DNA of 64,000 nucleotides, from NCBI GenBank assembly GCA_049512315.1, contig JBEKXF010000005.1, forward strand, positions 62,001-126,000, given 5' to 3'. The stretch's first letter is position 1. Every line of letters begins with the position of its first letter. This document shows positions 41,360 through 56,722 of this stretch, one piece after another. The stretch comes from Candidatus Aminicenantales bacterium (GTDB lineage: Bacteria > Acidobacteriota > Aminicenantia > Aminicenantales > Saccharicenantaceae). The translations under genes and the position numbers were made by a program. Under the pieces are notes generated by a model. That model worked only from the letters and a program-made list of their open reading frames with translations. It did not search any database and had not been told where the DNA came from.

Positions 41360-42916
41360 TTACCTGATATAGTCGCTCAGAGTGATATTGCGGGTTTCGA
41401 GGGTCGAGCCCGTGACCTTGGCGATGTTCGCCATGGCCACGTTGTAGTCGACGAGGGCCTTCAGCTCCAAGGACCGGGCGCTGGACAGGGCGTCCTGGTA
41501 GGTGAGGACGAAGTAGTTCGTCGACAGTCCAACGCTGAGCTTCTTCATCTCGGCGTCGAGCTGCTTTTCGGCGAGCTCCCGGGCCACGCGATAGGCGTCC
41601 ACGCTCTTGGACGCCGTCTCCAGGCTCAGGACCGCGTCGCTGACCTCGAGGGCGATCTGCTGCTCCTCGTTCTTGAGGCGGGCCTGGCTCTGCTCGAGAT
41701 CGAGCCTGGCGTAGGCATAATTGGCCCGGCCGACCATGTCGCCGAAGGGGATAGACAGGGTCAGCCCGACCGACCAGTTATTGTAGAGGAACTTGAAAGC
41801 GTCCCGGAGGGCCTGCGAGGGGTTGCCTTTTTCAACGCCGATCGGGGCCAGGAAAGGGTTGTTGTCCTGATAGATGATCTTGTCGCCCGCGATGCCGGGG
41901 CTCCCCTTGCTGAGCTTCAGGTCGAGCTGCGGCAGGAGCTGGTTGCGGGCGACCGCGAAATTGATGTGCTTCGTATCGACCGCATATTTCGCGGACTCGA
42001 GCTCCGGCCTCCTGGCCATCGCCTTTTGAAGGGCCTCCTCGTACGTGATCTGGAGTGGCTTGAGGGTGGGTTTGTCGGCCGGCACGACGAGCCGGCCCTT
42101 GGCCCCTTCGTCCGCGCCCAGGTTGAGGAGGGTGCCGAGCTGGTCCCGGCTGCGCCTAACCATGGCTTCGGCCTGGAGGATGTCGGCCTCCCTCCGGGCC
42201 ACGGTCGCCTCGGCGTTGAGGACCTCGATCGGCGCCTTCTGCCCGACCTCGACCTCCTTTTTCGTCTTGGCGAGGAGGTCCCGCCCGAGGTCGAGGGACT
42301 GCTGGAGGGCCTTCAGATTCTCAATGGAATAGACGAGGTTCCAGTAGGCCGCCTCGACGGAGTAGACCGTGTTGATCAGGGTCGTCTTGAACTGGCTGCG
42401 CGAGATGTCGAGGGAATACTGGGCCACGATGATCTGCCTGCGGCTGACCTTCCAGCCGAAGTTCCGGAGCAGCGGCTGGGTCAGGGCGAAGCTCAGGTTG
42501 CCCGTATACGACGGGTTGTAGTTTTGGAACAGCTGGTTATTTCTGGTCCAGTTGTAGTCCAGGCCCACGTTAAAATTTCCGCCGAATGGAATCTGCTGGA
42601 CGAGGGAGAGGTTGGAGTCCGTGTATTTCTGGACATACGTGCCCGAGTTCTGGAGGGACCAGGTCGAGGGCTGTTCATAGCGGTTGCCCGTGAAACCGAC
42701 CCCCAACGTCGGCATATAGAATTGCCTGGCCTCGGAGAGCGTCGCCCCGGCCAGCTCGGGGCTGATGACCTCGGCGGCCACGTTGAGGTTGTTCTTCAGG
42801 GCTTTGACGATAGAATCCTCCAGGGTCAGGGACAGCTCTTTGGTCTCCTGCCCGAACGAGAAAAGGCCGAGGAGGGCCAGGGTGAGAAACATCGCGCTGA
42901 ACGATCGCTTGTTCAT
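41360..42916 (-). CDS. TolC-family outer-membrane channel
   Basis: Signal peptide, LTLED.I..AL.NN, TQPLLR.FG, RPEL, LPQLDL and two OEP repeats. Confidence 0.9.
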   Translation of the reverse strand: MNKRSFSAMFLTLALLGLFSFGQETKELSLTLEDSIVKALKNNLNVAAEVISPELAGATLSEARQFYMPTLGVGFTGNRYEQPSTWSLQNSGTYVQKYTDSNLSLVQQIPFGGNFNVGLDYNWTRNNQLFQNYNPSYTGNLSFALTQPLLRNFGWKVSRRQIIVAQYSLDISRSQFKTTLINTVYSVEAAYWNLVYSIENLKALQQSLDLGRDLLAKTKKEVEVGQKAPIEVLNAEATVARREADILQAEAMVRRSRDQLGTLLNLGADEGAKGRLVVPADKPTLKPLQITYEEALQKAMARRPELESAKYAVDTKHINFAVARNQLLPQLDLKLSKGSPGIAGDKIIYQDNNPFLAPIGVEKGNPSQALRDAFKFLYNNWSVGLTLSIPFGDMVGRANYAYARLDLEQSQARLKNEEQQIALEVSDAVLSLETASKSVDAYRVARELAEKQLDAEMKKLSVGLSTNYFVLTYQDALSSARSLELKALVDYNVAMANIAKVTGSTLETRNITLSDYIR

Positions 42917-43032: not shown

Positions 43033-44421
43033 TCATTCGGGCCAACGGATCCGGAGAATGGTCATCTTGTTGAACAGGGTCTTGCGGCTCACCCCGAGGA
43101 GCCGGGCCGCCCGGGTCCGGTTCCCCCCGGTCTGCCGCAGGGCGTCGAGGATGAGCTCCCTCTCCGTCCGCTCGGCGACGCCCTGGACGGTCTCCCGCAG
43201 CGCCTGGGGGGGCCGGGCCGGAGGATGGGCCCCCCCCGTCTCCGCCGCCGGGGAGCGGAGCCGCGAGGGCAGCGCCCGCTCGTCCACCCGGGGGCCGTCG
43301 GCCATGACCATGGCCTCGTAGATCACGTTCTCGAGCTCGCGGACGTTCCCGGGCCAGGGATACGCGGCGAGGCGGGCCATCACCGCGGCCGTCACCCCGC
43401 TGGCCTCTTTCCCGAGCTCCCCCGCGTATTTCCGGACGAAGTGTTCGGCCAGGAGCGGAATGTCCTCCGCCCTGTCCCGGAGCGGCGGAAGCTCAAGCGA
43501 CAGGACGGCCAGCCGGAAATATAGGTCCTCCCGGAAGGCGCCCTTCCGGACCTGCTCTTCGAGGTTCTTGTTCGTAGCCGCGATGACCCGGACGTCGACC
43601 GGGATCGTCGCCGTCCCGCCGACCTTGACGATCTCCCTCTCGCCCAGGGCCCGGAGGAGCTTGACCTGGGCGTCCTGGGAGAGCTCCCCGACCTCGTCGA
43701 GGAAGATCGTCCCTTTGTGGGCCAGCTCGAACTTGCCCGTCTTTTCGGTCCGGGCGTCCGTGAAGGCCCCTTTGACATGGCCGAAGAATTCGCTCTCGAT
43801 GAGGTCCCGGGGGATGGCGCCGCAGTTGACCACGACGAACGGGCCGTCCTTGCGGGGGCTGGCGAAATGGATGGCCCGGGCGACGAGCTCCTTGCCGGTC
43901 CCGCTCTCGCCCGTGACGAGGACCGTCCCGTCGACCCGCGACATCTTTTCCATGAGCTGGAAGACCGAGTTCATCCGGCCGCTCGTCCCGACGATGTTCG
44001 AGAAACGGTAGCGCGAGACGAGCTCCGACCGCAGGCTCTCGACTTCCTTCCGGAGGGTCTTGACCTCGAGGATCCGGGCCACGGCCAGGAGCATCTCCTC
44101 GTTGTCCACGGGTTTCTCGAGGTAGGCGTAGGCGCCGAGCTTGGTGGCCTCGACGGCGCTCCGGATCGTCCCGTAGGCGGTGACGATGATGATCCCCGTC
44201 CCGGGGTGATCCGCCCTGAGCCGGGCCAGGACGTCGAGCCCGGAGAGGTCGGGGAGGTTCATGTCGAGCAGGATGACGTCGGGCTCGAGGAGCCGGGCTT
44301 CTTCGACCCCCGCTTCCCCGGCCTCCGCCGTCCCGACCTCGTATCCGTGGTCCTCGAGGAGCAGGGAAAAGACGTCGCGGATGTTCTTCTCGTCGTCGAT
44401 GATCAGGATCCTGGGCTTCAT
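43033..44421 (-). CDS. NtrC-family sigma54-dependent response regulator
   Basis: Receiver domain (IIDDE...LLD), GESGTGKE, GAFTDA, WPGNVRELEN, Fis-type HTH. Confidence 0.96.
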   Translation of the reverse strand: MKPRILIIDDEKNIRDVFSLLLEDHGYEVGTAEAGEAGVEEARLLEPDVILLDMNLPDLSGLDVLARLRADHPGTGIIIVTAYGTIRSAVEATKLGAYAYLEKPVDNEEMLLAVARILEVKTLRKEVESLRSELVSRYRFSNIVGTSGRMNSVFQLMEKMSRVDGTVLVTGESGTGKELVARAIHFASPRKDGPFVVVNCGAIPRDLIESEFFGHVKGAFTDARTEKTGKFELAHKGTIFLDEVGELSQDAQVKLLRALGEREIVKVGGTATIPVDVRVIAATNKNLEEQVRKGAFREDLYFRLAVLSLELPPLRDRAEDIPLLAEHFVRKYAGELGKEASGVTAAVMARLAAYPWPGNVRELENVIYEAMVMADGPRVDERALPSRLRSPAAETGGAHPPARPPQALRETVQGVAERTERELILDALRQTGGNRTRAARLLGVSRKTLFNKMTILRIRWPE

Positions 44422-44437
44422 GCGGGGTCTCCCTTTC

Positions 44438-45682
44438 TCAGGCCGCGGGGAGCGTCACGAGGACGGTCGTCCCTTCGCCGACGCGGCTCCTCACCTCGAT
44501 CTCCCCCTGGTGCGATTTGACGACGCTGTAGCAGATCGACAGGCCCAGCCCCGTCCCGCCCTTTTTCGTCGTGAAAAATGGGTCGTAGATCTTGTCCATA
44601 TTCTCCTCCGGGATGCCCTCGCCCGTGTCGATGATCCGGGTCAGGATCTTCCCGTTGGCCAGGGGCAGGATCTCGCAGACGAGCTTGCCCCCGCCTTCCA
44701 TGGCCTGGATGGCATTGAGGAAAATATTGAGGAAGAGCTGCTTGACCTGGGACTTGTCCCCGTTGAGGAAGACCGGCCCGGCCGGGAACTTCGTCTCCAC
44801 CTCGACCCCGGCGGAGCGGGCCTGGAAGGAGATCAGGGCCAGGCTTTCCTCGAGGGTCACACCCAGGTCCACCTGTTCTTTTTTTATATCGGACGGCCGC
44901 GAGAACGATAGGAGCGCGGCCAGGATCTCGTCGATCCGGTCGGTCTCCTGGAGGGCGATCGCGAGGAGCTTCTTCTCCTTCTCTTCCTGGAAGCGGCTCT
45001 CCAGGTACTGGAGGGAGGACTTGATGGCGGTCAGCGGGTTCCGGATCTCGTGGGCGGCGCCCGCGGCGAGCTCGCCGATCGTCGCCAGCCGGTCGGCCCG
45101 GATCATCCGCCGGAACCTCTCCCGCTGCTCCTTGTAGAGCATGGCGTTTTCAAGGGCGATGCCGGCCTGGGGCGTCAGCGATCCGATGAAGGCCATCTCC
45201 GGCCTGGAAAAATCTCCCGGAGGCGTTTTCGGCCCGACGCAGAGGATGCCGATCAGCCGGTTCATGGACAGGAGCGGGTAGCAGAGCTCGAAGCCGAAAG
45301 TCCGGAAGATGTCCCGTTCTCTCTCGCCCAGGAAATCGAAGACGCCGGGCTGGCTCCGGACCTGGAGATAGGTCTTGTTGATCTTGAGCCACTTGGCCAA
45401 GTGGTCCTGGGGCGAGAAGGCCAGGGCCTTGAGACGGGCCTCGTCGATGCCGGTCGCCGCCGAGACCCGGAACTGGGTCAGGTCGTTATCGTAGATGAAG
45501 AAAGCCAGGACCTCGACGGGGACCGCTTCTCTGACCGTGCCCAGGAAGTTGAGGGCGATCTGGTCGAAGTCCTCGATGAGGTTCAGGCTTTCGGCGAACT
45601 CCCGGAAGATCAGGCGCGTCTCGCCCTCGGCGACCTTCCCGCGCGCCGGCTTGGTCTTCGAAGGACGGAAAATCGCGCTCAT
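44438..45682 (-). CDS. Cytoplasmic GAF-domain sensor histidine kinase
   Basis: GAF-like N-terminus ending GIALENA, AHEIRNPL, N box, DTGEGI, FFTTK..GTGLGL; no TM segment. Confidence 0.93.
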   Translation of the reverse strand: MSAIFRPSKTKPARGKVAEGETRLIFREFAESLNLIEDFDQIALNFLGTVREAVPVEVLAFFIYDNDLTQFRVSAATGIDEARLKALAFSPQDHLAKWLKINKTYLQVRSQPGVFDFLGERERDIFRTFGFELCYPLLSMNRLIGILCVGPKTPPGDFSRPEMAFIGSLTPQAGIALENAMLYKEQRERFRRMIRADRLATIGELAAGAAHEIRNPLTAIKSSLQYLESRFQEEKEKKLLAIALQETDRIDEILAALLSFSRPSDIKKEQVDLGVTLEESLALISFQARSAGVEVETKFPAGPVFLNGDKSQVKQLFLNIFLNAIQAMEGGGKLVCEILPLANGKILTRIIDTGEGIPEENMDKIYDPFFTTKKGGTGLGLSICYSVVKSHQGEIEVRSRVGEGTTVLVTLPAA

Positions 45683-45800: not shown

Positions 45801-45967
45801 ATTTGCAGTCATTTTAATCTCTGTCTGTTCGATATAGGATCCTATCATTAGGCAATCCTATTGCAATAATCGGGCCGAATTCGGCAGGCGCTGAGCTGAG
45901 GGGGGCGGACGGAGGAAAAAAACCAGGACCGTCCCTATTTCTCTTTCTCGTGGCGTGAATAGGAGTT

Positions 45968-45983
45968 TGGCACTAGAATTGCA
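45968..45983 (+). promoter_or_regulatory. Sigma54 (-24/-12) promoter
   Basis: TGGCAC-TAGAA-TTGCA with GG and GC separated by 10 nt; divergent from the sigma54 activator. Confidence 0.9.
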
Positions 45984-46015
45984 AGTATGGAAGTGACACC
46001 CTTGGAGGGATACGC

Positions 46016-47503
46016 ATGAAGATCATCAAAACCGTCGCCATCCTGGTCACGTTCCTCGTCGTGGCCTGGACGCTGGCCGCCCAGACCCAGGAATCCCAGA
46101 GCATGAAGCTTCTCCGGTTGAAAAGCGCCCAGCTCTCGCTCGAGCTGAAAAAGGCCGATTTCCAAAGATACCTGAAATTGAAAGAGGAAGGCCTGGCCTC
46201 CGAGGCGGACTTCGCCGAGAGGCAGACCGCCTATCTCCAGGCCCAGGTCGATTACCAGCAGGCCCTGATCAACTTCATGGGCAGCGAGGCCCGGATCTCG
46301 GTCGCGAGCGCCGTCAAGTTCCAGGACCGGAGCGGCAAGAAGTTCGTCCGCGTCTCTCTGCGCTATTCGTCCAAGGAGCTCAAGGAGCTGGCCAATCTCA
46401 AGATCAGCGCCGAGGACCTCTTTCCCCTGGACTTCATGAAGGAGATCAAGGATGTCTATGTCTCCCTCCTCTCGGAGGGGAAGATCATCTCCGACCCGTA
46501 CGAAAAGGTCGTCAAGTCCCTGCCCATAGAGTCGGAGAGGGAGGTGACCTTCCAGCTCCTCAAGGACGTCGAGAACCTGGAGGTCAGCGTTGGCTATTCC
46601 GGGAAGGAGGAAAAGACCTCGGTCTTCCTCCAGAAGGGGGTCAGCGCCAACATCGTGACGGTCAACTCGGCCCAGTTCTCGCAGGAGGCCGACCTCGAGG
46701 GCACGGCGACATACGACCTGTCGCTCGAGAAGTTCAGCGGCGAGGCCAACATCTTCAAGCTCGAGGTCGCCAACCTGCCCCAGCAGATCACCTATGAGTT
46801 CTCCGACCCGACGACCTCGGCCCGGCTCTCCCAGATCAAGTTCAGCGAGGGCGTCACGAGCCTCAAGCTCCAGCTCAAACTCTATCTCCCCAAGAACCCG
46901 GACACCCAGGTCGTCCTGGACAAGCCGATGGAGTTCTTTGTCCTGGCCATGGACAACGACCAGACGGCGAAGCTCCGGGAAATCGAGAAGGCCAACCCGG
47001 GCGTCGTGATCGAGCCCAAGGACATCGACGTCCTGAAGGCGGGGTCCGTCAAGCTCGAGCTCATCCCGCGCGGCGTGCCCAAGGTCGAGGTCCAGGCCGT
47101 GAACCTCTACCACGAGATCAAAGTCGGGGAGATCGTCGGCATGGACGTCACGGTCAAGAACACGGGAACTCGCAAGCTCAACAATATCAGGGTCTTCTGC
47201 GACCTGCCCCTGAATTGGCGGGTGGAGATCAAGCCCGACCTGATCGCGACGCTCGAACAGAACAAGGACGAGGTCGTCACCATCAAGTTCATCCCGCCGA
47301 CGGACGTCTCGGTCGGCGACTACGAGCCCAAGATCCGCACGGATTCGGCGGCCGAGAACCGGCGGGTCGAGTCCGAGGACAAGATCGTCCGCATCCACAT
47401 CACCTCGAAGACGAACGTCCTGGGGATCACGGTCCTGATCCTGCTCCTCGTGGGGCTCCTCGTCGGGATCGTCGTCTTCGGGATCAAGCTGACGAGGAGA
47501 TAG
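46016..47503 (+). CDS. Exported NEW3/Ig-like domain protein with an N-terminal MFP-like alpha-hairpin and a C-terminal TM anchor
   Basis: Signal peptide; helical R51-x3-L55-x6-S62 segment; VKNTG...LP.NW....P...GDY (NEW3-like); terminal TM plus KLTRR. Confidence 0.75.
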   Translation: MKIIKTVAILVTFLVVAWTLAAQTQESQSMKLLRLKSAQLSLELKKADFQRYLKLKEEGLASEADFAERQTAYLQAQVDYQQALINFMGSEARISVASAVKFQDRSGKKFVRVSLRYSSKELKELANLKISAEDLFPLDFMKEIKDVYVSLLSEGKIISDPYEKVVKSLPIESEREVTFQLLKDVENLEVSVGYSGKEEKTSVFLQKGVSANIVTVNSAQFSQEADLEGTATYDLSLEKFSGEANIFKLEVANLPQQITYEFSDPTTSARLSQIKFSEGVTSLKLQLKLYLPKNPDTQVVLDKPMEFFVLAMDNDQTAKLREIEKANPGVVIEPKDIDVLKAGSVKLELIPRGVPKVEVQAVNLYHEIKVGEIVGMDVTVKNTGTRKLNNIRVFCDLPLNWRVEIKPDLIATLEQNKDEVVTIKFIPPTDVSVGDYEPKIRTDSAAENRRVESEDKIVRIHITSKTNVLGITVLILLLVGLLVGIVVFGIKLTRR

Positions 47504-47512
47504 GAAGCGCAG

Positions 47513-48898
47513 ATGTTTGGCACGATCTTTAAGAAAGAGCTCCTGGACCAGATCCTTAGCCCCAAGTTCCTGATCGTCTCGCTCCTCTGCCTGGTCCTCA
47601 TTCCGGCCGGCCTTCTCCTGAATTACTCGAGCTATCAGAACGTCTTCCACGAATATGACGCCTCTCAGAAGGAGGCCAAGAATTCCACGACCATCTACCG
47701 GGAGCCGAGTGTCCTCGGCACTTTCGGCATCGGCCTCGAGAGCGTTCTCCCCGAGAAAGTCACCTTCGTCAAGTACGAGACGGACGCCAAGGGCCTCCAG
47801 GCTCAGAACGAGGTCCTGAGCCAGATCAACGGAAAGCTCGACTTCGTCGTCATCACGAGCTTTCTCCTCGGCCTTTTCGCTATCCTCTACGCTGGGACGA
47901 TGGCGAGCGGAGAAAAGGAGGCCGGGACCCTCAAGCTCGTCCTTTCGAATCCGGTTAAACGCAGCACGGTCATCGCCGCCAAGTTCCTGGGCGGTTTCAG
48001 CGTCCTCATGATCCCCTTCGCGGTCAGCACGCTTCTCGGCGGGTTGCTTCTTCTTTTCGAGGGGTTCCCGCTTTTCGCCGACGGCAACACGAGTCGGGTC
48101 CTGGCCTTGATCGTCCTCTCGATCCTCTATCTCGCGGCCCTCTTCTCCCTGGGCCTGCTCATCTCGACACTGACGCACCGGACGAGCATCGCGCTTCTCG
48201 CGGGTTTCTTCGTCTGGATCTTCCTGACGTTCGTCATCCCGAAAACGAGCGAGCCGTTGGCCGGCCTTATCCACCGGATACCGAGCGAAGAGGCCATGAA
48301 GGCCAACCGGGCCCAGGTCCGCAACCAGATCGAGAAGGAGAAGGGCAAGGCCCTGGCCCCCTTGATGGCGAAATATCTCCCCAACGACGGGCAGGGGAAA
48401 TGGGAATGGAACACCTACACCAAGGTCCGCGGGCCGGTGGCCAAAGAGTACGAAGAGCGGCTCGACCAGACCCTCCAGAAGTTTGACGCGGATTACGAGC
48501 GCCAGAAGGCCGCCCAACGGGCCCTCAGCCTCAACATCGCCCGCCTCTCGCCGGCCTCCGCCTATACCCAGGCGTCGCTGAACTTCTGCCATACGGGGAT
48601 CGCCGACCTCGAGAATTTCTCACGCAGCCTCCAGGCTCATTACATCCAACTCTATCAGGCCGTCTTCAAATACTCGTTCCAAGACACGTTCTCCTCTGAG
48701 GACGGAAGAACCAACCGATCAATGGGAGGAGATTCGAGCCCGGAGGGCAAGATCGACTACCCGAAATTCCGCTACCAGTTCCCGGCGTTCGAGGAAACGT
48801 TCAAGGACACAGCGCCCGACATCGTCTTGCTCGTCCTCTTCAACCTGATTTTTTTCGCCGCGGCCTATTATTCGTTCATCAGGTATGACGTGCGCTAA
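47513..48898 (+). CDS. ABC-2-type permease, paralog 1
   Basis: I.KKE N-terminus, GEKEAGTLKLVLSN, large extracytoplasmic loops, ends YDVR. Confidence 0.9.
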   Translation: MFGTIFKKELLDQILSPKFLIVSLLCLVLIPAGLLLNYSSYQNVFHEYDASQKEAKNSTTIYREPSVLGTFGIGLESVLPEKVTFVKYETDAKGLQAQNEVLSQINGKLDFVVITSFLLGLFAILYAGTMASGEKEAGTLKLVLSNPVKRSTVIAAKFLGGFSVLMIPFAVSTLLGGLLLLFEGFPLFADGNTSRVLALIVLSILYLAALFSLGLLISTLTHRTSIALLAGFFVWIFLTFVIPKTSEPLAGLIHRIPSEEAMKANRAQVRNQIEKEKGKALAPLMAKYLPNDGQGKWEWNTYTKVRGPVAKEYEERLDQTLQKFDADYERQKAAQRALSLNIARLSPASAYTQASLNFCHTGIADLENFSRSLQAHYIQLYQAVFKYSFQDTFSSEDGRTNRSMGGDSSPEGKIDYPKFRYQFPAFEETFKDTAPDIVLLVLFNLIFFAAAYYSFIRYDVR

Positions 48899-48906
48899 GA
48901 GCATGA

Positions 48907-48931
48907 ATGTACATACACCTGTACATATAAT
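48907..48931 (+). promoter_or_regulatory. Palindromic operator abutting a TATAAT -10 element (internal promoter)
   Basis: ATGTACA-TACACC-TGTACAT, then TATAAT (48926-48931). Confidence 0.55.
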
Positions 48932-49005
48932 AGGAAACACGAGAGGTACGGATCCATCCGAGTTCTCAGGTAAGAAAACCTGCCATTCCATAAAGAGGAG
49001 GTAAT

Positions 49006-49749
49006 ATGGCAAAACAGCAACCCATCTTGAAGGCTGACGACCTGTCAAAACGGTACGAGGACGGCGTCCTTGCGGTAGATCACCTGAACCTGAATATCTA
49101 CCCGGGTGAAGTCTACTGCCTGCTCGGGGCCAACGGCGCGGGGAAGACGACGACGATCAACCTTTTCCTGAACTTCATCCCGCCGACGACCGGGACCTGC
49201 TACGTCAACGGTATCGACGTCACCAAGGACCCGCTCGAGGCCAAGAAGTACGTCTCCTTCGTCTCGGAGAACGTCATGCTCTACGGCAACTTCACGGCCC
49301 GCCAGAACCTCGACTTCTTCGCCAAACTCGGCGGCAAGACGAACCTGGCCAAGAACGACTACTATCAGGTCATGCGCCGGGTCTCGCTCCAGGAGAAAGC
49401 CTTCGAACAGCGGGTCAAGAACTTCTCTAAAGGCATGCGGCAGAAGCTCGGCATCTCGATCGCCGTCATCAAGGACGCGCCGGGCATCCTGCTCGACGAG
49501 CCGACCTCGGGCCTCGACCCGAAGGCGGCCGAGGAGTTCCTGGAAATCTTGAACGAGCTCAAGAAAGAGGGCAAGGCCATCCTGATGTCCACTCACGATA
49601 TCTTCCGGGCCAAGGAGATCGGCGACCGCGTCGGGATCATGAAGGAAGGGCGGCTGGTCATGGAGCGGACCCGCGAGGAGCTCCAGTATGAGGACCTGGT
49701 CAAAATCTACATCGACTACATGAAGTCCGAGCCCCTGACGTTGTCCTGA
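49006..49749 (+). CDS. ABC transporter ATP-binding protein
   Basis: GANGAGKT, FSKGMRQK, LLDEPT, STH. Confidence 0.96.
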   Translation: MAKQQPILKADDLSKRYEDGVLAVDHLNLNIYPGEVYCLLGANGAGKTTTINLFLNFIPPTTGTCYVNGIDVTKDPLEAKKYVSFVSENVMLYGNFTARQNLDFFAKLGGKTNLAKNDYYQVMRRVSLQEKAFEQRVKNFSKGMRQKLGISIAVIKDAPGILLDEPTSGLDPKAAEEFLEILNELKKEGKAILMSTHDIFRAKEIGDRVGIMKEGRLVMERTREELQYEDLVKIYIDYMKSEPLTLS

Positions 49750-49811
49750 CGGACCGGCGTCGCCGACGCCCCTGTGCGCCTGCGCGCCACCGGTTCCAGG
49801 AGACAAACGCT

Positions 49812-51254
49812 ATGTTGAAAACGATCATCAAGAAAGAGGTGCTGGAGACGATCTTCAGCTACCGGTTTCCGCTCTTCGCCATCATCTGCCTCCTCCTCAT
49901 CCCGCTCGGGATGACCGTTAACCAGGCCAGCTACGCTAAAAGAGTCCGGGACTACAGCGAGCAGGTCCGGCTGGCCGACGAGGCGGCCGCGGCCATCAAA
50001 ATTCAGGACGTCATGGCCGGAACCGTGGCCGTCAAGGGCTTCCGGCGGCCGGCGCCCCTCTCAGTCTTCACCCAGGGGTTCGAGAGCACGCTCCCCCGCT
50101 ATTACGAATTCACCCAGGACGGCTTCAAGCCGGGGGAATCGGCGAGCGACGACGAATCGATCCTTTCGGTCCAGGGCAAGGTCGATTTCGTCTTCCTCGT
50201 CCAGATGGTCATCAGCCTGATCGCCCTGCTCTTCGCCTCGGACATGGTTTCGGGCGAGAAGGAGGCGGGGACGCTGCGGGCCATGCTCGCCAACAGCCTG
50301 CCGCGCGACACGCTCCTGGCCGGGAAGATCGGCGGCGGCTATCTGGCGCTGTGGGTCCCGTTCCTCGTCGCCTTCCTGCTGGGCACGGTCGTCCTCATGC
50401 TGGCCGCGTTGCCTCTCTTCGGCGGCGACGCGACGGCGCGCGTCCTGATCATCTTTCTCGCGACGTCCCTCTTCATCCTGACCTACTTCACGATCGGGAT
50501 CGCGGTCTCGACGAGCGCGGCCAAGGCCCGGACCTCCCTCGTGGCCATCTTCATCGTCTGGGTGGCCTTCCAACTGATCATTCCCAAGCTCGGCGACATG
50601 GTCGCCCGCCTCGTCTATCCCGTCCGGACCGAAACCGCGGTCTCGCTCCAGAAATCCCTCCTCGTCCGGTCGCTCGACATCGAGACGGCCAAGGAGCTCG
50701 GCCGCCAGTTCGACCTCATTTTCGGTGCCGCGCCGAAGGGCGCCGTGGACGACGAAAAATCACCCGAGAGGAAAAAATGGGACCCGATCAGAGACGATAT
50801 CCAGCTCCGGACCCGGGAGAGGAAGGGCCAGCAACTCGCGGCTATCGACGAAACCTACATCCAGGAGAGGCGGCGGCAAACGAACCTGGCCGTCAACCTT
50901 TCGCTCGTTTCGCCGAGTGCCGCCTTCGCCCGGTTCGTCGCGGACGTCTGCGGGACGGGAGAGCTTGAGCGGGCCAAGTACATCGAGGCGGTCCGGTCCC
51001 ATCAGAAGGCCCTCGACAACGAGCTCTTCAGCAAGGTCAAACGGACGCTTATGATGCACGAGGGTGGGGGCATGTCGATGTCGTTCTCGGCCATGCCCGT
51101 GGACGCGTCAAAGCTCCCAAAATTCTCGATCGTTCCGGCCTCGATCGCGGAGACGTTCAAGGCAAACGTGCGGAGCCTCCTCTCGCTCCTCTTCTGGCTC
51201 ATCGCCCCCTTCGCCTACGCGTACGTCCGGTTCATCAAATACGACGTGAGGTGA
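49812..51254 (+). CDS. ABC-2-type permease, paralog 2
   Basis: GEKEAGTLRAMLAN; ends YDVR. Confidence 0.9.
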   Translation: MLKTIIKKEVLETIFSYRFPLFAIICLLLIPLGMTVNQASYAKRVRDYSEQVRLADEAAAAIKIQDVMAGTVAVKGFRRPAPLSVFTQGFESTLPRYYEFTQDGFKPGESASDDESILSVQGKVDFVFLVQMVISLIALLFASDMVSGEKEAGTLRAMLANSLPRDTLLAGKIGGGYLALWVPFLVAFLLGTVVLMLAALPLFGGDATARVLIIFLATSLFILTYFTIGIAVSTSAAKARTSLVAIFIVWVAFQLIIPKLGDMVARLVYPVRTETAVSLQKSLLVRSLDIETAKELGRQFDLIFGAAPKGAVDDEKSPERKKWDPIRDDIQLRTRERKGQQLAAIDETYIQERRRQTNLAVNLSLVSPSAAFARFVADVCGTGELERAKYIEAVRSHQKALDNELFSKVKRTLMMHEGGGMSMSFSAMPVDASKLPKFSIVPASIAETFKANVRSLLSLLFWLIAPFAYAYVRFIKYDVR

Positions 51255-51282
51255 CATCGAGTTTCGCGGATGTGAGGATCAG

Positions 51283-52617
51283 ATGTTGAAAACGATCATC
51301 AAGCGGGAAATCCTCGAATACCTGAAATCCGCCAAGTTCCTCATCGGCCTCGGCATCACCCTGGCCCTGGCGGCCGGCAGCACGGTCATCAACGTCCAGG
51401 ATTACAAGGGGCGCCTGCAGGATTACCAGGCCGCCGTGCAGGAACTGAAGAGCGACCGCTTCTACATCCATCTTTACCGGCCACCCCAGGTCCTCAGCAC
51501 CCTCATTCAAGGGAAGGACCGGTCCCTCGGTAACAGTATTACCATCACATATATGGGTATCCCGCCTCGCACGTCGGGCTACATGGGCGAGGGAAGAAGC
51601 CAGCATCAACGACTTGTTTCGGGGTTCGCGGCCATCGATTTCGCTTTCATCGTCCGGGTCGTGCTGAGCCTGATGGTTATTTTTATCGCCTACAACGCCG
51701 TATCCGAGGAGAAAGCCTCGGGGACCCTGAAGCTGACCCTCTCGAACCGGGTGCCGAGGGACCAACTCCTGCTCGGCAAGTTCCTGGGCGGGTGGTTCGT
51801 CATCATGGGCTCGCTCGCCGTCTCCGCCCTCGTCTCCCTGATCATCGTGCTGTCCCATTCATTCGTCTCCTTCGCCTCCGGGGAATGGACCCGCCTCCTC
51901 GTCTTCATCGGCCTTTCGGCCCTCTACCTCACGGTTTTCTACGGGCTGAGTCTTTTCGTGTCGGTTCTCGTCGACAGGCCCTCCATTTCCCTGATGATCT
52001 TGCTCCAGGCGTGGGTCTTCCTGATCATCATCTATCCCAACCTGGGTATCATCGCCGCCGACAGCCTTTACAAGCTGCCGAGCGAGGAACAACTCATAAA
52101 ACAACATGCTGCGGCTTTCCAACCCTACGCAGCGGAATATAAAAAGGTCATGGAGGCCTTTAGCCAGAGCGTGCGCAAAGGCGAGATGAACAAGGAGCTC
52201 GGCCTGCGCAGCGTGGAGCTCGACGCTTTGAACGCCGAGTTGATCCACCAGGCTGACGAAGAGTTGAGCCGTAAACTCACGGCGCAGACCAACTTGGCCC
52301 GGGCGATCTCGAGCCTTTCGCCTGCGGTATTGTTCGACCAGGCCGCCGAGCGGTATGCCCGGACAGGGATGGCCGAGTACGAGCGCTTCATGCGGGAGGT
52401 CTATCGCTGCTGGCAGCAGGATGTCGAAAGGTCCAAACTCATCTACACCGACCGCGAGGCCTATAAAAAGGCGCCGCCCATCGATTTCCGCCTTCCCGTT
52501 GAGTCGACGGCCGAGGCCTTTGCCGCGACCTGGCTCCAGTGGCTCCTCCTCGCCTTCTTCGGCCTAGCCTTTTTCGCCCTGGCGTATACGGCCTTCCTGA
52601 AGAAGGACGTGAGGTGA
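51283..52617 (+). CDS. ABC-2-type permease, paralog 3
   Basis: EEKASGTLKLTLSN; ends KDVR. Confidence 0.9.
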   Translation: MLKTIIKREILEYLKSAKFLIGLGITLALAAGSTVINVQDYKGRLQDYQAAVQELKSDRFYIHLYRPPQVLSTLIQGKDRSLGNSITITYMGIPPRTSGYMGEGRSQHQRLVSGFAAIDFAFIVRVVLSLMVIFIAYNAVSEEKASGTLKLTLSNRVPRDQLLLGKFLGGWFVIMGSLAVSALVSLIIVLSHSFVSFASGEWTRLLVFIGLSALYLTVFYGLSLFVSVLVDRPSISLMILLQAWVFLIIIYPNLGIIAADSLYKLPSEEQLIKQHAAAFQPYAAEYKKVMEAFSQSVRKGEMNKELGLRSVELDALNAELIHQADEELSRKLTAQTNLARAISSLSPAVLFDQAAERYARTGMAEYERFMREVYRCWQQDVERSKLIYTDREAYKKAPPIDFRLPVESTAEAFAATWLQWLLLAFFGLAFFALAYTAFLKKDVR

Positions 52618-52621
52618 CATC

Positions 52622-54022
52622 ATGAGGACGATCATCCGCAAGGAGCTCCTGGATCACCTGAGAAGCGTTCAGTTCGCAGTCCTGCTCGCGGCGAGTCTCG
52701 TCCTGTTCGCGGTGAACGGGCTCGTCTTCGTCCGGCAATATCGCCAGCTCAATTCCGATTTCCGGCTCCATGTCGCGGAGGTAGAGCAACACCCGAGCAC
52801 GACGATGACATCCCTCTTCAAATCACCGAGCCCGCTGCTGTTCGTGGCGGAGGGGGGAGAAAAAAACAGCCCGTCCAGTTATTACTTGAGCCCGAAACAG
52901 ACTATCTCGGCCATGTCATCCGGCCCGCGCAACTTCAAAATGCCGGAGGTCCCTGATCTCGACTGGGCTTTCATCATCAAGATCGTCTTTAGCCTGTACG
53001 TGATCCTTCTCGGGTTCGAGGCCGTGTCCGGCGAAAAGGAGCGGGGCACGCTCCGTCTGATCCTTTCCAACCCGGTCGGCCGGCTGAGGCTCCTGACAGG
53101 GAAATACCTGGCCATCATTTTGAGCGCCGCCATCGCCCTGCTCGTCGGACTCCTCATCAGCCTCGTCGTGATCGCCGTCTTCCTTCCGGCGGTCTTGAGC
53201 CTGCCCAACTTGACGCGCATCGCCTTCCTTTTCGTCCTCGCCCTGGCCTACCTCTCCCTCTTCGCGTTCCTGGGCCTCTTTTTCTCCGCGCTCATCCTCC
53301 GTTCCTCACTCGTCCTCCTCGTCCTCTTGGCCTTTTGGATTTTCTTCGCGTTCTTCATCCCAGACACGTCGGGCATTATCGCCCAAAAATTCTCGAACGT
53401 TCCGAGCGAATACGAGATGGCCAAGCTCGTGGGGCCGACCATCCAGAAAGAAGTCTGGGACAGAATAAGTAAGCTTCAGAACAGAATCCAAAAAGGCGAA
53501 TTGAAGACGGAAAAAGACGTCCGTGAAGAGGCTGACCTTGCCTACGAGGAAGGCCAGGACCATGTCCGGAAGCTCTATACCGATTATGACCATGCCATGC
53601 AGCAGAGGGCCGATTTGGCCCAGAAGATATCGCGTGCTTCGCCGGTGGCCCTGCTCCAATATTCTGCCGAGGACATCGCGGGAACCGGGCCTGCGGCCGA
53701 CGCTAGGTTCCTCCAGGACGCTCGGAACTATTCCAGGGCATACGATGATTACATCCTGAAAAAAGTTGGGAAAGTCGTCGGGACATCTCCCTGGAGCTTT
53801 TCGACTAGCGCGACCCTGAACGGCAAGCATATCTTCCTCGAATCTCCCGCCCCGCTGGAATACGAAGGAGACAAGTCCGATTTCCCCAGGTTTTCCGAGA
53901 CCAAGGCGACGCTCCTCGACGGCCTGGGGAGCGGTCTGTGGGACATCGCCGGCCTGCTCGTCTGGAACATCCTGCTGGCCGGGCTGGCGTTCTCGGCGTT
54001 CCTGAGGACGGACGTGAGGTAA
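52622..54022 (+). CDS. ABC-2-type permease, paralog 4
   Basis: GEKERGTLRLILSN; ends TDVR. Confidence 0.9.
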   Translation: MRTIIRKELLDHLRSVQFAVLLAASLVLFAVNGLVFVRQYRQLNSDFRLHVAEVEQHPSTTMTSLFKSPSPLLFVAEGGEKNSPSSYYLSPKQTISAMSSGPRNFKMPEVPDLDWAFIIKIVFSLYVILLGFEAVSGEKERGTLRLILSNPVGRLRLLTGKYLAIILSAAIALLVGLLISLVVIAVFLPAVLSLPNLTRIAFLFVLALAYLSLFAFLGLFFSALILRSSLVLLVLLAFWIFFAFFIPDTSGIIAQKFSNVPSEYEMAKLVGPTIQKEVWDRISKLQNRIQKGELKTEKDVREEADLAYEEGQDHVRKLYTDYDHAMQQRADLAQKISRASPVALLQYSAEDIAGTGPAADARFLQDARNYSRAYDDYILKKVGKVVGTSPWSFSTSATLNGKHIFLESPAPLEYEGDKSDFPRFSETKATLLDGLGSGLWDIAGLLVWNILLAGLAFSAFLRTDVR

Positions 54023-54039
54023 GCGAGCAGGGGGACATC

Positions 54040-55287
54040 ATGACCTGGACCATCGCCCGGAAAGAGATCCTTTCGAACCTCCTGAGCTATAAATTTTTCA
54101 TCGTCCTTCTCCTCATCGTCCTGCTCATCGCCACCAGCCTCTTCATCATGCACCGGGACTACAGGCAGAGGATGGCCGACTACCAGGTCATCCGGCCCAA
54201 ACCCGGCGAACGGATCGCGCTCGTCGCGCCCAACCCCCTGTCCATCTTCGCCAAAGGGCTCGACGACGCCATTACCCGCTCCTTCGAGATCAGCCCCGTC
54301 GGCATCGAGGTCCGGGCCGGCCAGTCCTCGGGCAACATCATCTACTCTTTTTTCCCGGCGCCCGACTTTCTCTATGTCGTCCGGGTCGTCCTGTCGCTCG
54401 TCGCCCTCCTTTTCGGCTTCGACCAGGTCAGCCGGGAACGCGAGCAGGGGACGCTGAAGCTCCTCCTGGGGAGTTCCATCTCCCGGGCCAGGGTCCTCGC
54501 CGGCAAGTGGATCGGGAACTTCCTGAGCCTGGCCGTCCCCTTCCTCCTGGTGACGCTCCTCGGCACCATGGTTCTTTTCCTCGACCCGGAGGGCCGTCTC
54601 TCTACGGGCCAGTTCGCGCGGTTGGCGCTCATCCTGGCCCTTTCTCTTCTCTACCTGGGCTTTTTCCTGAGTCTTGGTATGCTTGTCTCGGCCCTGACCC
54701 GGCGCGCGGCGACCTCGATCATCGTCCTCCTCTTCATCTGGGCCCTTTTCGTTTTCATCATCCCCAACCTGGGCACGCTGTTGGCGCGCCAGTTCGTCAG
54801 GGTCCCGTCGGTCCGGGCCCTGAGCGAAAAGCGGCAGCAGACCTGGACGCGGGAGGTCCTCCTCAGCATCAAGGACCAGAGCTGGCAGACCCATTTGCGA
54901 ACGATCAGCGACGAAAACGACAAACTGGCGCAGGACTACCGCTTGAAGTTCGAGCGCCTCGTGCGTCTTTCCCGGGACATCAACCGCGTCTCCCCGTCGG
55001 CGAGCTTCCTCGACGCCGCGAGCGAGATCGCCGGCACGGGGATCGGCGAGGAGAGCCGTCTCAAGGAGGAGATCGTCCGTTATAAGGACTCGATCATCGA
55101 CCAGATCATCGCCAACGAGAGCTCCGGGGAGCGGGACGCGCAGTATGCCGCGTTCACGTACAGGCCGAGGCCGCTCGCCGAGGTCTTCTCCGCTGGGGCT
55201 CTCTTCGATACGGTCTGGCTCGTTTTCTTCAACATCCTCTCATTCGCCCTGGCCTATGTCGCGTTCGTCCATTACGACGTGAGGTAA
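54040..55287 (+). CDS. ABC-2-type permease, paralog 5
   Basis: Start set at MTWTIARKE; REREQGTLKLLL; ends YDVR. Confidence 0.9.
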   Translation: MTWTIARKEILSNLLSYKFFIVLLLIVLLIATSLFIMHRDYRQRMADYQVIRPKPGERIALVAPNPLSIFAKGLDDAITRSFEISPVGIEVRAGQSSGNIIYSFFPAPDFLYVVRVVLSLVALLFGFDQVSREREQGTLKLLLGSSISRARVLAGKWIGNFLSLAVPFLLVTLLGTMVLFLDPEGRLSTGQFARLALILALSLLYLGFFLSLGMLVSALTRRAATSIIVLLFIWALFVFIIPNLGTLLARQFVRVPSVRALSEKRQQTWTREVLLSIKDQSWQTHLRTISDENDKLAQDYRLKFERLVRLSRDINRVSPSASFLDAASEIAGTGIGEESRLKEEIVRYKDSIIDQIIANESSGERDAQYAAFTYRPRPLAEVFSAGALFDTVWLVFFNILSFALAYVAFVHYDVR

Positions 55288-55291
55288 AGCC

Positions 55292-56722
55292 ATGCTGAAG
55301 ACGCTCATCACCAAGGAGATCCGGACGAACATCCTGTCCTTCAGGTTCCTCGCGAGCTTCGTCATCCTCTTCGTCGTCGTCGCCGTCACGGCCGTCGTCC
55401 TGGCCGGCAACTACACGCGGAAACTCGACGAGTATTCCCAGCGCCAGGCGGAGATCGGGAGTTACCTCAGGAACTACGCCCACTTCAACCGGATCGGCAA
55501 TATCCTCCAGGCGACGCAGCCGCCCATCCCCTTCCAGGCCCTCGTCCGGGGCCTGACGTCCGACATCAACATGGAGGAGTTCGACGACGACCCCCTGCCG
55601 GTCATGTTCCCGCTCATCGACCTGACTTTCATCGTCACCATCCTCGCGAGCCTCATCGCCCTGATCCTGTCCTACGACGCCGTTTGCGGCGAGAAGGAGG
55701 ACGGGACGCTGAAACTGATGCTCTCGAACGGCCTGCCGCGGTCGAAGATCGTCCTGGCCAAGTTCGCCGGCGGAGTTCTGACGCTCATCGGGCCTTTCCT
55801 CGTGTCGATCGCGGCCGGGATGCTCATCATCCTCCTCCACCCGCGCGTCAACTGGACGGGCGCGGACTGGGGCGCCCTCGGGCTGATCGTCGCCGGGGCG
55901 GTCCTCTACATCTCCGTCTTCTATCTCATCGGCATCCTCATCTCGTCGGTCCACAGGACCAGCGCATCGTCGATCATGACCTCGCTCTTTGTCTGGGTCC
56001 TCCTCATCCTCGTCGTCCCTAACCTGAGCCCTTATGTCTCGTCGTTCCTCGCGCCGGCGCCTTCGCGGATCAAGGTCGCGCGGGAAGTGAGCCGGTTAAC
56101 GGACGTCGATCGGGACGACCTCGGGCGAAAGCTCATGGCCGAGTACAGGGGCGAGGTCCTCAAGCAGTACCCGGTGCTCGCCGAGCGGCGGTCGGAAGCC
56201 GAGGTCAAGAAGCGCGTCGCAGAGGATTCTGAATACCGGAAGGCGTATGAGGCGAACCGGGCGGCGGTCGAAAGGGCCTGGGCCGAGGCCAATCGGACTC
56301 AGAACGGCAAAGCCGAAGTGCTGAATCAGGACCTCCGGCAGAAGGAAGAGGCGCAGACGGACCTGGCCCGCTCGATCTCCATGATCTCGCCGCTCGCCGA
56401 CTTCAGCTATTTCGCTACGGACCTGTCCTCGACCGGGACGGAGAACATGGCCCATTTCGGACGGCTAGCCCAGGCCTGGGGCCAGGCTTTCTACCGCGAT
56501 TACCAGAATAAAAAAATCGCAGAGCTGAAGGCCAAGGACCCGACCGCCGACGCGTGGAACACGGCCATCGATATGACCGACTCACCCCGGTTCCGCTATG
56601 TCGAGGAGGGACTGGGGGGCAGGGTCAGGGCCGCGTTGCCGCCGTTCGCGGCCCTGCTGGGCTACTGCGTGGTGCTCTTCGCCGCGGCCTACGTGGCGTT
56701 CATTCGCTACGACGTGAGGTGA
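55292..56722 (+). CDS. ABC-2-type permease, paralog 6
   Basis: GEKEDGTLKLMLSN; ends YDVR. Confidence 0.9.
   Translation: MLKTLITKEIRTNILSFRFLASFVILFVVVAVTAVVLAGNYTRKLDEYSQRQAEIGSYLRNYAHFNRIGNILQATQPPIPFQALVRGLTSDINMEEFDDDPLPVMFPLIDLTFIVTILASLIALILSYDAVCGEKEDGTLKLMLSNGLPRSKIVLAKFAGGVLTLIGPFLVSIAAGMLIILLHPRVNWTGADWGALGLIVAGAVLYISVFYLIGILISSVHRTSASSIMTSLFVWVLLILVVPNLSPYVSSFLAPAPSRIKVAREVSRLTDVDRDDLGRKLMAEYRGEVLKQYPVLAERRSEAEVKKRVAEDSEYRKAYEANRAAVERAWAEANRTQNGKAEVLNQDLRQKEEAQTDLARSISMISPLADFSYFATDLSSTGTENMAHFGRLAQAWGQAFYRDYQNKKIAELKAKDPTADAWNTAIDMTDSPRFRYVEEGLGGRVRAALPPFAALLGYCVVLFAAAYVAFIRYDVR

Follow-up and report, generated by a model that had tools for sequence, protein, structure and literature searches.

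The locus described here raises the question of how an ABC-2-type exporter might be coupled to an outer-membrane duct. In the window, by which we mean the whole 64-kb stretch of DNA that was analysed, the first gene of an ABC-2 exporter operon encodes a 495-aa protein in which an alpha-helical hairpin resembling that of classical periplasmic adaptors is joined to Ig-like and NEW3 beta-sandwich domains, and a gene for a TolC-family outer-membrane factor lies close by. On balance we favour the reading that this hairpin protein acts as a non-canonical periplasmic adaptor for an ABC-2 exporter under sigma-54 control, with TolC as the presumed docking partner of the hairpin, and it probably represents an undescribed coupling of an ABC transporter to a TolC-like duct. 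Literature searches, mostly outside subscription journals, found no description of a hairpin-NEW3 adaptor architecture. Coordinates of the features discussed are collected in Table 1.

Table 1. Features of the hairpin-protein locus, numbered from the first letter of the window.
Feature	Position	Strand	Evidence or remark
TolC-family outer-membrane factor, proposed partner	41360..42916	-	PF02321 E 3e-46; TIGR01844 E 1.9e-34
Sigma-54 activator response regulator	43033-44421	-	PF00158 E 1.8e-68, PF00072
GAF histidine kinase	44438-45682	-	HisKA, HATPase_c
Sigma-54-type promoter-like motif TGGCAC-N5-TTGCA	45968..45983	+	33 nt 5' of the hairpin-gene start codon
Hairpin-NEW3 protein gene	46016..47503	+	Open frame, 495 aa; candidate non-canonical adaptor
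Signal peptide, residues 1-22	46016..46081	+	Model helix 2-21; likely cut around TLAA/Q
MFP/PAP-type alpha-helical hairpin, residues 28-89	46097..46282	+	AlphaFold2, hhalign, PDB matches
Two Ig-like beta-sandwich domains, residues ~93-205 and ~214-312	46292..46951	+	AlphaFold2 strands
Third beta-sandwich, NEW3 (NPCBM-associated), residues ~343-463	47042..47404	+	PF10633 E 9.9e-11, residues 370-437
C-terminal TM helix, residues 468-494, then basic tail (KLTRR)	47417..47497	+	AlphaFold2 helix
ABC-2 permease paralog 1	47513..48898	+	PF12679 E 5.6e-34, DUF3526
ABC ATPase, single in operon	49006..49749	+	PF00005 E 4.6e-26; TIGR01188 drrA-like E 5.9e-57
Five further ABC-2 permease paralogs	49812..56722 (49812-51254, 51283-52617, 52622-54022, ~53938-55287, 55292-56722)	+	PF12679 E 2.8e-27 to 6.1e-35

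Domain layout of the hairpin protein

The protein was modelled with AlphaFold2 from a 110-sequence alignment (pLDDT 94.4, pTM 0.78). Behind a signal peptide that is predicted to be cleaved, the model places two helices, 28-57 and 63-89, separated by a loop at residues 58-62 (EGLAS), where the earlier note had proposed an MFP-like hairpin at about residues 30-85, followed by Ig/NEW3 domains and a C-terminal anchor. All three elements were recovered. The hairpin leads into three beta-sandwiches, of which the first two drew Ig-like and PapD-like matches in VIA structure comparisons (e.g. 5fce_B, Z 9.5, residues 89-211) and the third matched 8k2k_A (VIA Z 12.3), and the NEW3 model PF10633 matched every one of the 96 relatives scanned. 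Whole-model Foldseek comparison with the PDB returned only generic tandem-Ig matches (integrins, ciliary proteins) and was uninformative on the hairpin. A crude rule-based script detected an N-terminal hydrophobic stretch in 101 of the 110 cluster representatives, a -3/-1 cleavage-type site past it in 98, and a C-terminal TM or hydrophobic stretch with a basic tail in 109; judged from these sequences, the architecture is kept across the representatives.

That note had also called the topology inverted, which is right for the C-terminal anchor, but the arrangement is better described as a linear chain that does not fold back, running from hairpin through three sandwiches to the TM helix. An N-terminal membrane anchor with a folded-back chain is absent: the signal peptide is of a cleavable type and the TM helix lies at residues 468-494. 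The same note reported neither lipoyl nor beta-barrel domains. The first part stands, because only about 5 residues separate the predicted signal-peptidase site from helix 1, which makes the N-terminal half of a lipoyl domain impossible, and no such domain was found with Pfam, NCBIfam or hhalign, whose matches to adaptors were confined to the hairpin. The second part holds at the level of sequence, where no match to a beta-barrel or membrane-proximal domain was found; AlphaFold2 gives three Ig-like sandwiches, structure searches barely covered domains 1-2, and these two domains may have a remote fold relation to the beta-barrel.

Relatives of the protein form 615 clusters at 50% identity (E<=1e-3). 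A related-loci scan started from the single protein reached Aminicenantes only; named family members also occur in Zixibacteria, Handelsmanbacteria and Bacteroidota records. Two relatives, P0177 and P0178, align from query residue 92-93 onward and do not have the hairpin. Proteins 49-85% identical to the query appear in records labelled 'uncultured Eubacteriales/Clostridia' or 'Bathyarchaeia', and since two such genomes had 8 and 18 OEP-model matches, these labels are no evidence of monoderm hosts.

The ABC-2 exporter operon and its TolC-family neighbour

The hairpin gene has a GGAGG-type ribosome-binding site 8 nt 5' of its ATG and opens a sigma-54-type ABC-2 exporter operon, in which genes for one ATPase and six permeases follow. 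ATPase and permease genes also flank the hairpin gene at most related loci, the gene order persists in relatives from 94% to about 30% identity, and in two assemblies the hairpin protein is fused to a permease (P0240, 892 aa; P0332, 924 aa). The TGGCAC-N5-TTGCA motif, whose promoter role we infer from its agreement with the consensus, has a single match in the 64-kb window when both strands are searched. Of 50 related loci tested, 17 also carry it 5' of the hairpin gene, exactly those that have a sigma-54 activator/kinase pair directly upstream. Because the presence of the pair co-varies with the motif, the response regulator and histidine kinase at 43033..45682 likely control the hairpin-gene operon.

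Neighbouring OEP and MFP genes were counted by six-frame HMM searches of the loci. Fifty-four Aminicenantes loci have an upstream flank of 5.5 kb or more; in 50 of them an OEP gene lies within 3.4 kb of the hairpin gene, and in 4 no OEP gene was found nearby. In 14 Aminicenantes loci the OEP gene is co-directional with the hairpin gene, with gaps of 12-358 nt. In a long-form clade whose proteins are 33-36% identical, the OEP gene lies downstream on the same strand in both metagenome loci (2/2), so that TolC adjacency occurs in two separate branches. Within the genome itself, TIGR01730 matches lie no more than 7 kb from 9 of the 10 OEP genes, and the window's OEP is the sole case of the ten with none, over 89 kb. 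The paralog nearest to it (43% identity) belongs to a canonical MFP-ABC ATPase-OEP string of the same genome. Neither the window nor the ~9 kb around the hairpin gene in 20 other loci contained a canonical MFP. A downstream canonical MFP in some relatives was considered as an operon member and rejected: it lies beyond tsaD, which is on the opposite strand, and an RND pump gene comes after it. This MFP-RND unit was found about 8-10 kb off in 14-15 of 79 Aminicenantes loci and is absent from the window.

The principal alternative casts the hairpin protein as an accessory subunit that serves the ABC-2 exporter in the periplasm, its hairpin being used for self-association, contact with the large periplasmic domains of the permeases, or a substrate cage such as has been proposed for Gram-positive adaptors, while the adjacency of TolC in Aminicenantes reflects co-regulation or another client of TolC. 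We consider this the less probable account, though one with appreciable weight. The ATPase and permeases are the only neighbours counted as universally conserved, and in other lineages of Acidobacteriota none of 16 loci (3 of the same class and 13 of other families) had an OEP gene within ~9 kb. Where it occurs, the MFP-RND unit beyond tsaD could be using the same TolC, which speaks against the adaptor reading. Hairpin-bearing canonical adaptors are also present in Gram-positives according to the available text of one review (PMC4446572), so that a hairpin by itself does not imply docking to an outer-membrane factor; for the same reason the suggestion that the adaptor reading could be refuted by hairpins outside diderms proved a weaker test than supposed. 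Against the accessory subunit stand the OEP adjacency in two distant branches, including near-zero intergenic gaps, the lack of any canonical MFP for the window's OEP, and conserved tip residues that are those used by canonical adaptors for contact with outer-membrane factors, as given in the part of PMC3391258 available. The proposal in the earlier note of a new periplasmic adaptor class thus gains from the genomic context (the ABC-2 operon, TolC adjacency, the orphan TolC and the permease fusion) and loses from the 16 loci without an OEP gene. A complex prediction for a TolC monomer (residues 24-518, 49-row alignment) with the hairpin and first sandwich domain (residues 23-212) gave no verdict (score 0.00) and counts neither for nor against docking; a monomer of TolC is also an unnatural target.

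Kinship of the hairpin to canonical adaptors

The hairpin is of the MFP/PAP type and not a generic coiled coil, as judged from profile comparisons and the structural model. In hhalign, the 110-member family profile matched the 10 canonical MFPs of the genome at 94% (E 1.4e-7, 46 columns), whereas the control comparison with the 10 OEPs of the genome reached only 32% (E 4.8e-4). When 96 members were scanned singly against NCBIfam, models matched included TIGR01730 RND_mfp (37 members), CzcB (25), EmrA (9), MdtN (7), PRK03598 'secretion protein HlyD' (6), DevB (2) and TolC (only 1), matches to adaptors that coiled-coil composition could inflate. The adaptor-model scores were far under the family cut-offs (e.g. 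19.1 bits vs 319) because only about 50-60 residues match. A Pfam scan of the 96 members yielded no MFP family at E<=0.01 and weak OEP matches in 7; precomputed Pfam annotations on some relatives include PF25885 and PF25893, which we take to be adaptor hairpin families. Searched singly against the PDB with phmmer, the protein returned only insignificant ATP synthase b matches (E ~0.3). The family profile, in turn, matched 24 PDB sequences at E<=1. Eighteen of these are adaptors, all aligned on profile positions 23-96, among them the TriA-TriB fusion 6vej (2.9e-6), MexJ, MacA (E 0.0055-0.0072), ZneB, MexA and AcrA, with no other coiled-coil protein on the hairpin region, and the remaining 6 are NEW3-type glycosidase domains.

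In a structure search of 48,161 chains, only 4l8j and MexA (1vf7), both of them adaptors, cover residues 25-90 among the 50 matches listed. Chain 4l8j superposes on the hairpin at 1.9 A over 66 residues (Z 10.4), and MexA residues 70-135 superpose on 25-90 at 1.6 A rmsd over 66 residues, gap-free and with 29% identity (Z 10.1), although for helical hairpins a Z under about 13 may stem from an arrangement that is common.

The earlier note had read an exact RLS motif at nucleotides 46166-46201, with conservation of its three residues as a check. The positions are exact: R51 is encoded by 46166-46168, L55 by 46178-46180 and S62 by 46199-46201. By itself the motif is weak evidence, since the protein contains RxxxLxxxxxxS once where its composition predicts 0.17 occurrences. 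In the hhalign alignment, however, R51, L55 and S62 fall on the R...L......S columns of MFPs, with the R, L, G and S/T columns in register, and in the model the three residues would form the hairpin tip, since R51 and L55 end helix 1 and S62 caps helix 2. Among the 110 cluster representatives L is kept in 98 and S or T in 91 (S 77, T 14); R51 is kept in only 65, which counts against the adaptor reading. The available portion of PMC3391258 defines the tip motif as RxxxLxxxxxxS/T, and in MexA/AcrA-type adaptors this motif is experimentally needed for binding of TolC/OprM, as far as the accessible text of that paper and of PMC4446572 goes.

It is also conceivable, but quite improbable, that the resemblance to adaptors is convergent or compositional, of a kind that any tight-turn amphipathic hairpin might show, and that the protein is one of the envelope proteins of COG1470/NEW3 type, capped by a coiled coil. 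The E-values are modest (best 1e-6 to 1e-7) over about 46-66 residues, the hairpin also matches that of OEPs weakly, and the OEP Pfam model cross-matches the hairpin of a canonical MFP in the same genome (C43:14884-15162). Distant look-alikes can be pointed to as well, in the form of Atlas clusters named 'COG1470 family protein' of about 390-420 aa, whose scores of 0.76-0.77 make them leads only. Convergence would nonetheless have to account for PDB matches on the hairpin that are adaptors in 18 of 18 cases, for tip columns in register with those of canonical MFPs, for the gap-free superposition on MexA at 29% identity, and for an OEP control that scored clearly lower. The least probable reading, a cell-surface or adhesin-like glycan-binding protein placed in the operon by coincidence, can appeal to secreted glycosidases and surface proteins as the best-known settings of NEW3/CARDB domains and to glycosidase accessory domains as the best PDB matches of domain 3, but against it stand the retained gene order, the permease fusions, and the nearly universal C-terminal TM helix with a cytoplasmic basic tail, which puts the ectodomain in the diderm periplasm and not on the cell surface.

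A proposed adaptor among known systems

As a non-canonical adaptor, the hairpin protein would become a type-I inner-membrane protein once its signal peptide is removed, with the C-terminal helix anchoring it beside the ABC-2 permeases and the three beta-sandwich domains forming a stalk that would span the periplasm. The free N-terminal hairpin, homologous to those of the AcrA/MexA/MacA type, would be directed away from the membrane, where its RLS tip would meet the tip of the TolC-family channel, and exported material would then exit the cell envelope. The protein is also presumed to oligomerise and to make contact with the permeases as well as with TolC.

The nearest parallel in overall plan is MacA-MacB-TolC (PDB 5nik, 3fpp), where, too, the inner-membrane exporter is driven by ATP and has large periplasmic domains, the hairpin of the adaptor carries R-x3-L-x6-S, and the duct is of the TolC family. 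MacB, however, is a type-VII transporter (FtsX/MacB_PCD), whereas the permeases here are ABC-2 (PF12679). In MacA, lipoyl, beta-barrel and membrane-proximal domains are built on a chain that is anchored N-terminally and folds back; the hairpin protein instead runs in a line from a hairpin at its free N-terminus through three Ig-like sandwiches to an anchor at its C-terminus. The hairpins of the RND adaptors MexA and AcrA (PDB 1vf7, 2f1m, 5ng5) are equal in length and shape to the one described here, but nothing is common outside the hairpin, the partner is an RND pump and not an ABC-2 exporter, and the hairpin protein does not have a lipid anchor. The E. coli system YbhG-YbhFSR also joins a hairpin-bearing adaptor to an ABC-2-type exporter; in YbhG, a canonical MFP, lipoyl and barrel domains occupy the place that the Ig/NEW3 stalk takes in the hairpin protein. 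PRK03598, which matched 6 of 96 members weakly, is presumably the YbhG family. With COG1470/NEW3-domain membrane proteins the likeness lies in the beta-sandwich NEW3/CARDB ectodomain and in NEW3 followed by a C-terminal TM helix, although the Atlas clusters mentioned above are about 100 aa shorter than the hairpin protein.

The typical periplasmic adaptor, as outlined in the available text of two reviews (one of them PMC4446572), has a hairpin, a lipoyl domain, a beta-barrel, mostly a membrane-proximal domain, and an N-terminal anchor, and the same text notes variants such as the hairpin-less BesA. Against this background a further reading is attractive, which we hold tentatively and at slightly less than even confidence: that the TolC-docking hairpin of classical adaptors has been transplanted onto a linear, C-terminally anchored stalk of three Ig domains, replacing the lipoyl/barrel/membrane-proximal scaffold and fold-back common to all described adaptors. 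It would then be a second, independently built bridge between ABC exporters and TolC, and the large family to which it belongs would serve ABC-2 pumps of modular build, with a single ATPase powering several permease paralogs that are interchangeable.

Should this protein indeed couple an ABC-2 exporter to TolC, the hairpin would be a docking module that is portable and able to work on an unrelated scaffold, which would bear on the long-running question of the minimal needs of recognition between adaptors and outer-membrane factors (tip-to-tip contact vs deeper interpenetration). It would also give a function to a large family whose members in uncultured Acidobacteriota/Aminicenantes now go under the labels 'hypothetical' or 'NEW3 domain-containing'.

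Architecture of the hairpin-NEW3 protein

The hairpin-NEW3 gene, a candidate for a non-canonical periplasmic adaptor, has a ribosome-binding site of the GGAGG type 8 nt 5' of its start. An AlphaFold2 model of the protein, built from an alignment of 110 sequences representing clusters at 50% identity, was confident (pLDDT 94.4, pTM 0.78), and NEW3 was the sole Pfam match (residues 370-437, E 9.9e-11). The architecture is conserved among relatives: scored with crude scripts, an N-terminal hydrophobic stretch was present in 101 of the 110, followed by a -3/-1 site in 98, and the C-terminal transmembrane (TM) helix with its basic tail was kept in 109, bearing out the C-terminal anchor proposed in an earlier note.

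Features of the hairpin-NEW3 locus (nucleotide positions) and of its protein product (residues)
Feature	Position	Strand	Remark
GT4 + GT2 glycosyltransferase genes	39373-41224	-	3' of TolC gene, same strand
TolC-family outer-membrane channel (OEP)	41360-42916		divergent, upstream of hairpin-NEW3 gene
Sigma-54 activator response regulator	43033-44421		divergent, upstream of hairpin-NEW3 gene
GAF histidine kinase	44438-45682		divergent, upstream of hairpin-NEW3 gene
Sigma-54-type promoter-like motif, TGGCAC-N5-TTGCA	45968-45983		perfect; sole such match in window
Hairpin-NEW3 gene	46016-47503	+	open frame, 495 aa
ABC-2 permease	47513-48898	+	first after hairpin-NEW3 gene
ABC ATPase	49006-49749	+
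Five further ABC-2 permease paralogs	to 56722	+
Signal-peptide helix	residues 2-21		AlphaFold2
Two long helices	residues 28-57, 63-89		linked by loop EGLAS; AlphaFold2
Three beta-sandwich domains	residues ~93-205, 214-312, 343-463		AlphaFold2
TM helix	residues 468-494		then KLTRR; AlphaFold2

Canonical adaptors (MFPs), as described in PMC13328181 and PMC4446572, consist of membrane-proximal, beta-barrel, lipoyl and hairpin modules, and their chain runs up and then back down from an N-terminal anchor, whereas the anchor of the hairpin-NEW3 protein is C-terminal. The earlier note had seen no evident lipoyl domain, and none is there: helix 1 begins only ~5 residues after the likely signal-peptidase site, which leaves no room for a lipoyl domain built around the hairpin, and all adaptor matches end at the hairpin. 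With no lipoyl domain, matches confined to the hairpin and a C-terminal anchor, the protein shares the hairpin module of the MFPs and otherwise falls outside their family. No description of this architecture was found in the literature searched, and the terms 'Ig-like' and 'C-terminal transmembrane' do not occur in a 2026 adaptor review (PMC13328181).

The N-terminal hairpin and its RLS motif

Five independent lines of evidence (NCBIfam models, profile-profile comparison, a PDB profile search, a structure search and residue conservation) agree that residues 28-89 are an adaptor hairpin of the MFP/PAP type, as had been proposed. The CzcB/NccB adaptor model of NCBIfam matched residues 30-84 weakly (E 5.4e-4). 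When 96 members were scanned singly, TIGR01730 (RND_mfp) was matched by 37, CzcB by 25, EmrA by 9, MdtN by 7, PRK03598 (HlyD) by 6 and DevB by 2, and a TolC model by just one; all scores lie far under family cut-offs because the match is limited to the hairpin. In profile-profile comparisons with the ten best canonical MFPs and ten OEPs, both from the window's own genome, the hairpin-family profile aligned to the MFPs with 94% probability (E 1.4e-7, 46 columns), its R, L and S falling on their R...L......S columns, versus 32% (E 4.8e-4) for the OEPs.

Searched against all PDB sequences, the same profile gave 24 matches at E<=1, of which 18 were periplasmic adaptors (the TriA-TriB fusion 6vej at 2.9e-6, MexJ, three MacA, 4dk1, 4l8j, ZneB, five MexA and five AcrA-named chains), every one at profile positions 23-96; the remaining six were NEW3-type domains of glycosidases on the third sandwich, and no other coiled-coil protein was among the 24. 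Residues 25-90 were covered by two of the 50 matches listed in a structural search of 48,161 chains, both of them adaptors, the Bacteroides efflux adaptor 4l8j (Z 10.4, 1.9 A over 66 residues) and MexA 1vf7 (Z 10.1, 1.6 A over 66 residues, 29% identity), values that are supportive rather than decisive because for long helices a Z below ~13 may mean a common arrangement. Two results count against this assignment: a local Pfam scan of the 96 members matched none to an MFP family at E<=0.01 but seven, weakly, to OEP, and the hairpin segment alone matched the OEP model (E 0.0016). That model also matches a canonical MFP elsewhere in the genome (C43:14884-15162), and the hairpins of adaptors and OEPs generally cross-match.

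The RLS motif (R-x3-L-x6-S) is defined in PMC3391258, where TolC binding was shown to require it in MacA, AcrA, MexA and HlyD (as RLT), and is reviewed in PMC4446572. As the earlier note had it, R51, L55 and S62 are encoded at 46166-46201; in the model they form the hairpin tip, where helix 1 ends and helix 2 is capped. One copy of the bare motif is found in the protein versus 0.17 expected, so the motif alone proves little. Conservation was found among the 110 representatives, where R51 is kept in 65, L55 in 98 and S62 in 77, with T in 14 more, and the loop residue G59 in 68.

Transporter operon and linkage to TolC

The hairpin-NEW3 gene is the first of a co-directional string with permeases and an ATPase, and ABC ATPase and ABC-2 permease genes lie beside it at nearly all loci with flank among the 79 from Aminicenantes and 18 from other Acidobacteriota that were compared. 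The window has one ABC ATPase for six paralogous permeases (47513-56722; PF12679, several with DUF3526), permease number and order differ among close relatives, and three candidate ORFs (255, 265 and 193 aa) with no Pfam match follow the last permease (56935-58972, +). Two metagenome assemblies, with sequences that differ at many positions, encode a permease fused ahead of the hairpin-NEW3 protein (P0240, P0332), and the segment resembling a signal peptide, kept where the two parts join, serves as a putative seventh TM segment. Of 50 related loci tested (among L001-L074), 17 have the sigma-54-type motif ahead of the hairpin gene; these are exactly the ones with the activator/GAF-kinase pair directly upstream, and the motif is missing from the 33 that lack the pair; the operon is probably regulated by the adjacent activator and kinase. 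GT4 is conserved beside TolC in 39 of 79 loci, and the GT4 and GT2 genes hint at a possible glycan or glycolipid substrate.

The window's genome has 10 OEP genes, nine of them no more than 7 kb from a TIGR01730 adaptor match (seven of the nine within ~1.1 kb). The window's OEP is an orphan: no such match occurs within 89 kb of it on the contig, and the sole match of an MFP HMM over the window is the hairpin gene itself (E 8.5e-4). The nearest paralog of this TolC (43% identity versus at most 27% for others) sits in a canonical MFP-ABC ATPase-...-OEP string, which indicates that this OEP subfamily serves ABC-type pumps; at the window locus the hairpin-NEW3 protein occupies the place of the MFP. 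No canonical MFP was found within ~9 kb of the hairpin gene at 20 loci that were non-Aminicenantes or belonged to the long-form clade, distant relatives of 718-798 aa with 33-36% identity to the query. At 14-15 of the 79 loci from Aminicenantes (L008, L009, L025, L038, L043, L044 and others), a unit of canonical MFP, NHL/beta-propeller protein and AcrB-type RND pump lies past an opposite-strand tsaD, with ~8-10 kb between it and the hairpin gene upstream; the window has tsaD (58960-60111, -) and lacks the unit. This unit is separate from the hairpin operon and could share TolC in the 14-15 genomes that carry it.

The hairpin gene was detected at 77 Aminicenantes loci, and for 54 of them upstream flank of at least 5.5 kb was available. 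A TolC homolog lay within 3.4 kb in 49 of these 54 (tblastn), a frameshifted gene found by HMM at L048 makes the 50th, and none was found at L039, L058, L066 or L076. The TolC gene was divergent and directly adjacent at 17 loci (18 including L048); divergent with the two-component system in between, as in the window, at 15; co-directional and directly upstream at 14, with gaps of 12-358 nt and in some loci its stop abutting or overlapping the hairpin gene start; and co-directional ~3 kb upstream at three. The co-directional TolCs are 40-47% identical to the window's TolC and slightly nearer another paralog of its genome.

Beyond Aminicenantes the linkage is mixed. Six-frame HMM searches of the 18 other-Acidobacteriota loci found an OEP gene, co-directional and adjacent, at L122 and L123 (same order) and none near the hairpin gene at the other 16. 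Both long-form metagenome loci recovered have an OEP gene downstream of the hairpin gene and on its strand: at L167 it follows immediately (Pfam OEP, E 1.6e-40), and at L168 it lies within a fragmented stretch (E 1.6e-11). The permease and OEP frames of L168 are broken into short ORFs at the contig end (11744-14123), which could reflect assembly frameshifts or decay. Spurious antisense ORFs overlie the TolC and hairpin genes of the window (40013-42937, +, 974 aa; 45935-48592, -, 885 aa), and because of such long antisense ORFs in GC-rich DNA, longest-ORF gene calling misses OEP genes in related loci.

Distribution and proposed role

Clustered at 50% identity, the family numbers 615 clusters at E<=1e-3 and 200 at E<=1e-30, and 36 of the 401 genomes sampled from the phylum carry it; two relatives, P0177 and P0178, lack the hairpin. 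Named records belong to Aminicenantes, Acidobacteria/Acidobacteriota, Zixibacteria and Handelsmanbacteria, with others from Bacteroidota, 'candidate division B38' and 'bacterium' without phylum. Proteins 49-85% identical to the query also occur in public MAG records that bear the labels 'uncultured Eubacteriales', 'uncultured Clostridia' or 'Bathyarchaeia' (L010, L013, L019, L075 and others; P0396). Two of these genomes were examined and gave 8 and 18 OEP-model matches, and the labels look unreliable. No credible monoderm member was seen among the records found, in which monoderm phyla were sampled unsystematically.

Hairpin homology and gene context make a periplasmic adaptor, as the earlier note proposed, the best-supported reading of this protein and a fairly probable one, but the absence of an OEP at 16 of 18 other-Acidobacteriota loci counts against it. 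Beta-sandwich domains span ~35-40 A each and the hairpin is presumably MexA-sized, ~45 A, which together give an extended length of roughly 150 A, enough on this rough estimate to reach a TolC tip. After cleavage of the signal peptide, the C-terminal helix would anchor the protein beside the permeases, with the three sandwich domains as its stalk and the N-terminal hairpin as its membrane-distal tip, and multiple copies may offer their RLS tips to the tip of TolC, as MacA and MexA hexamers do.
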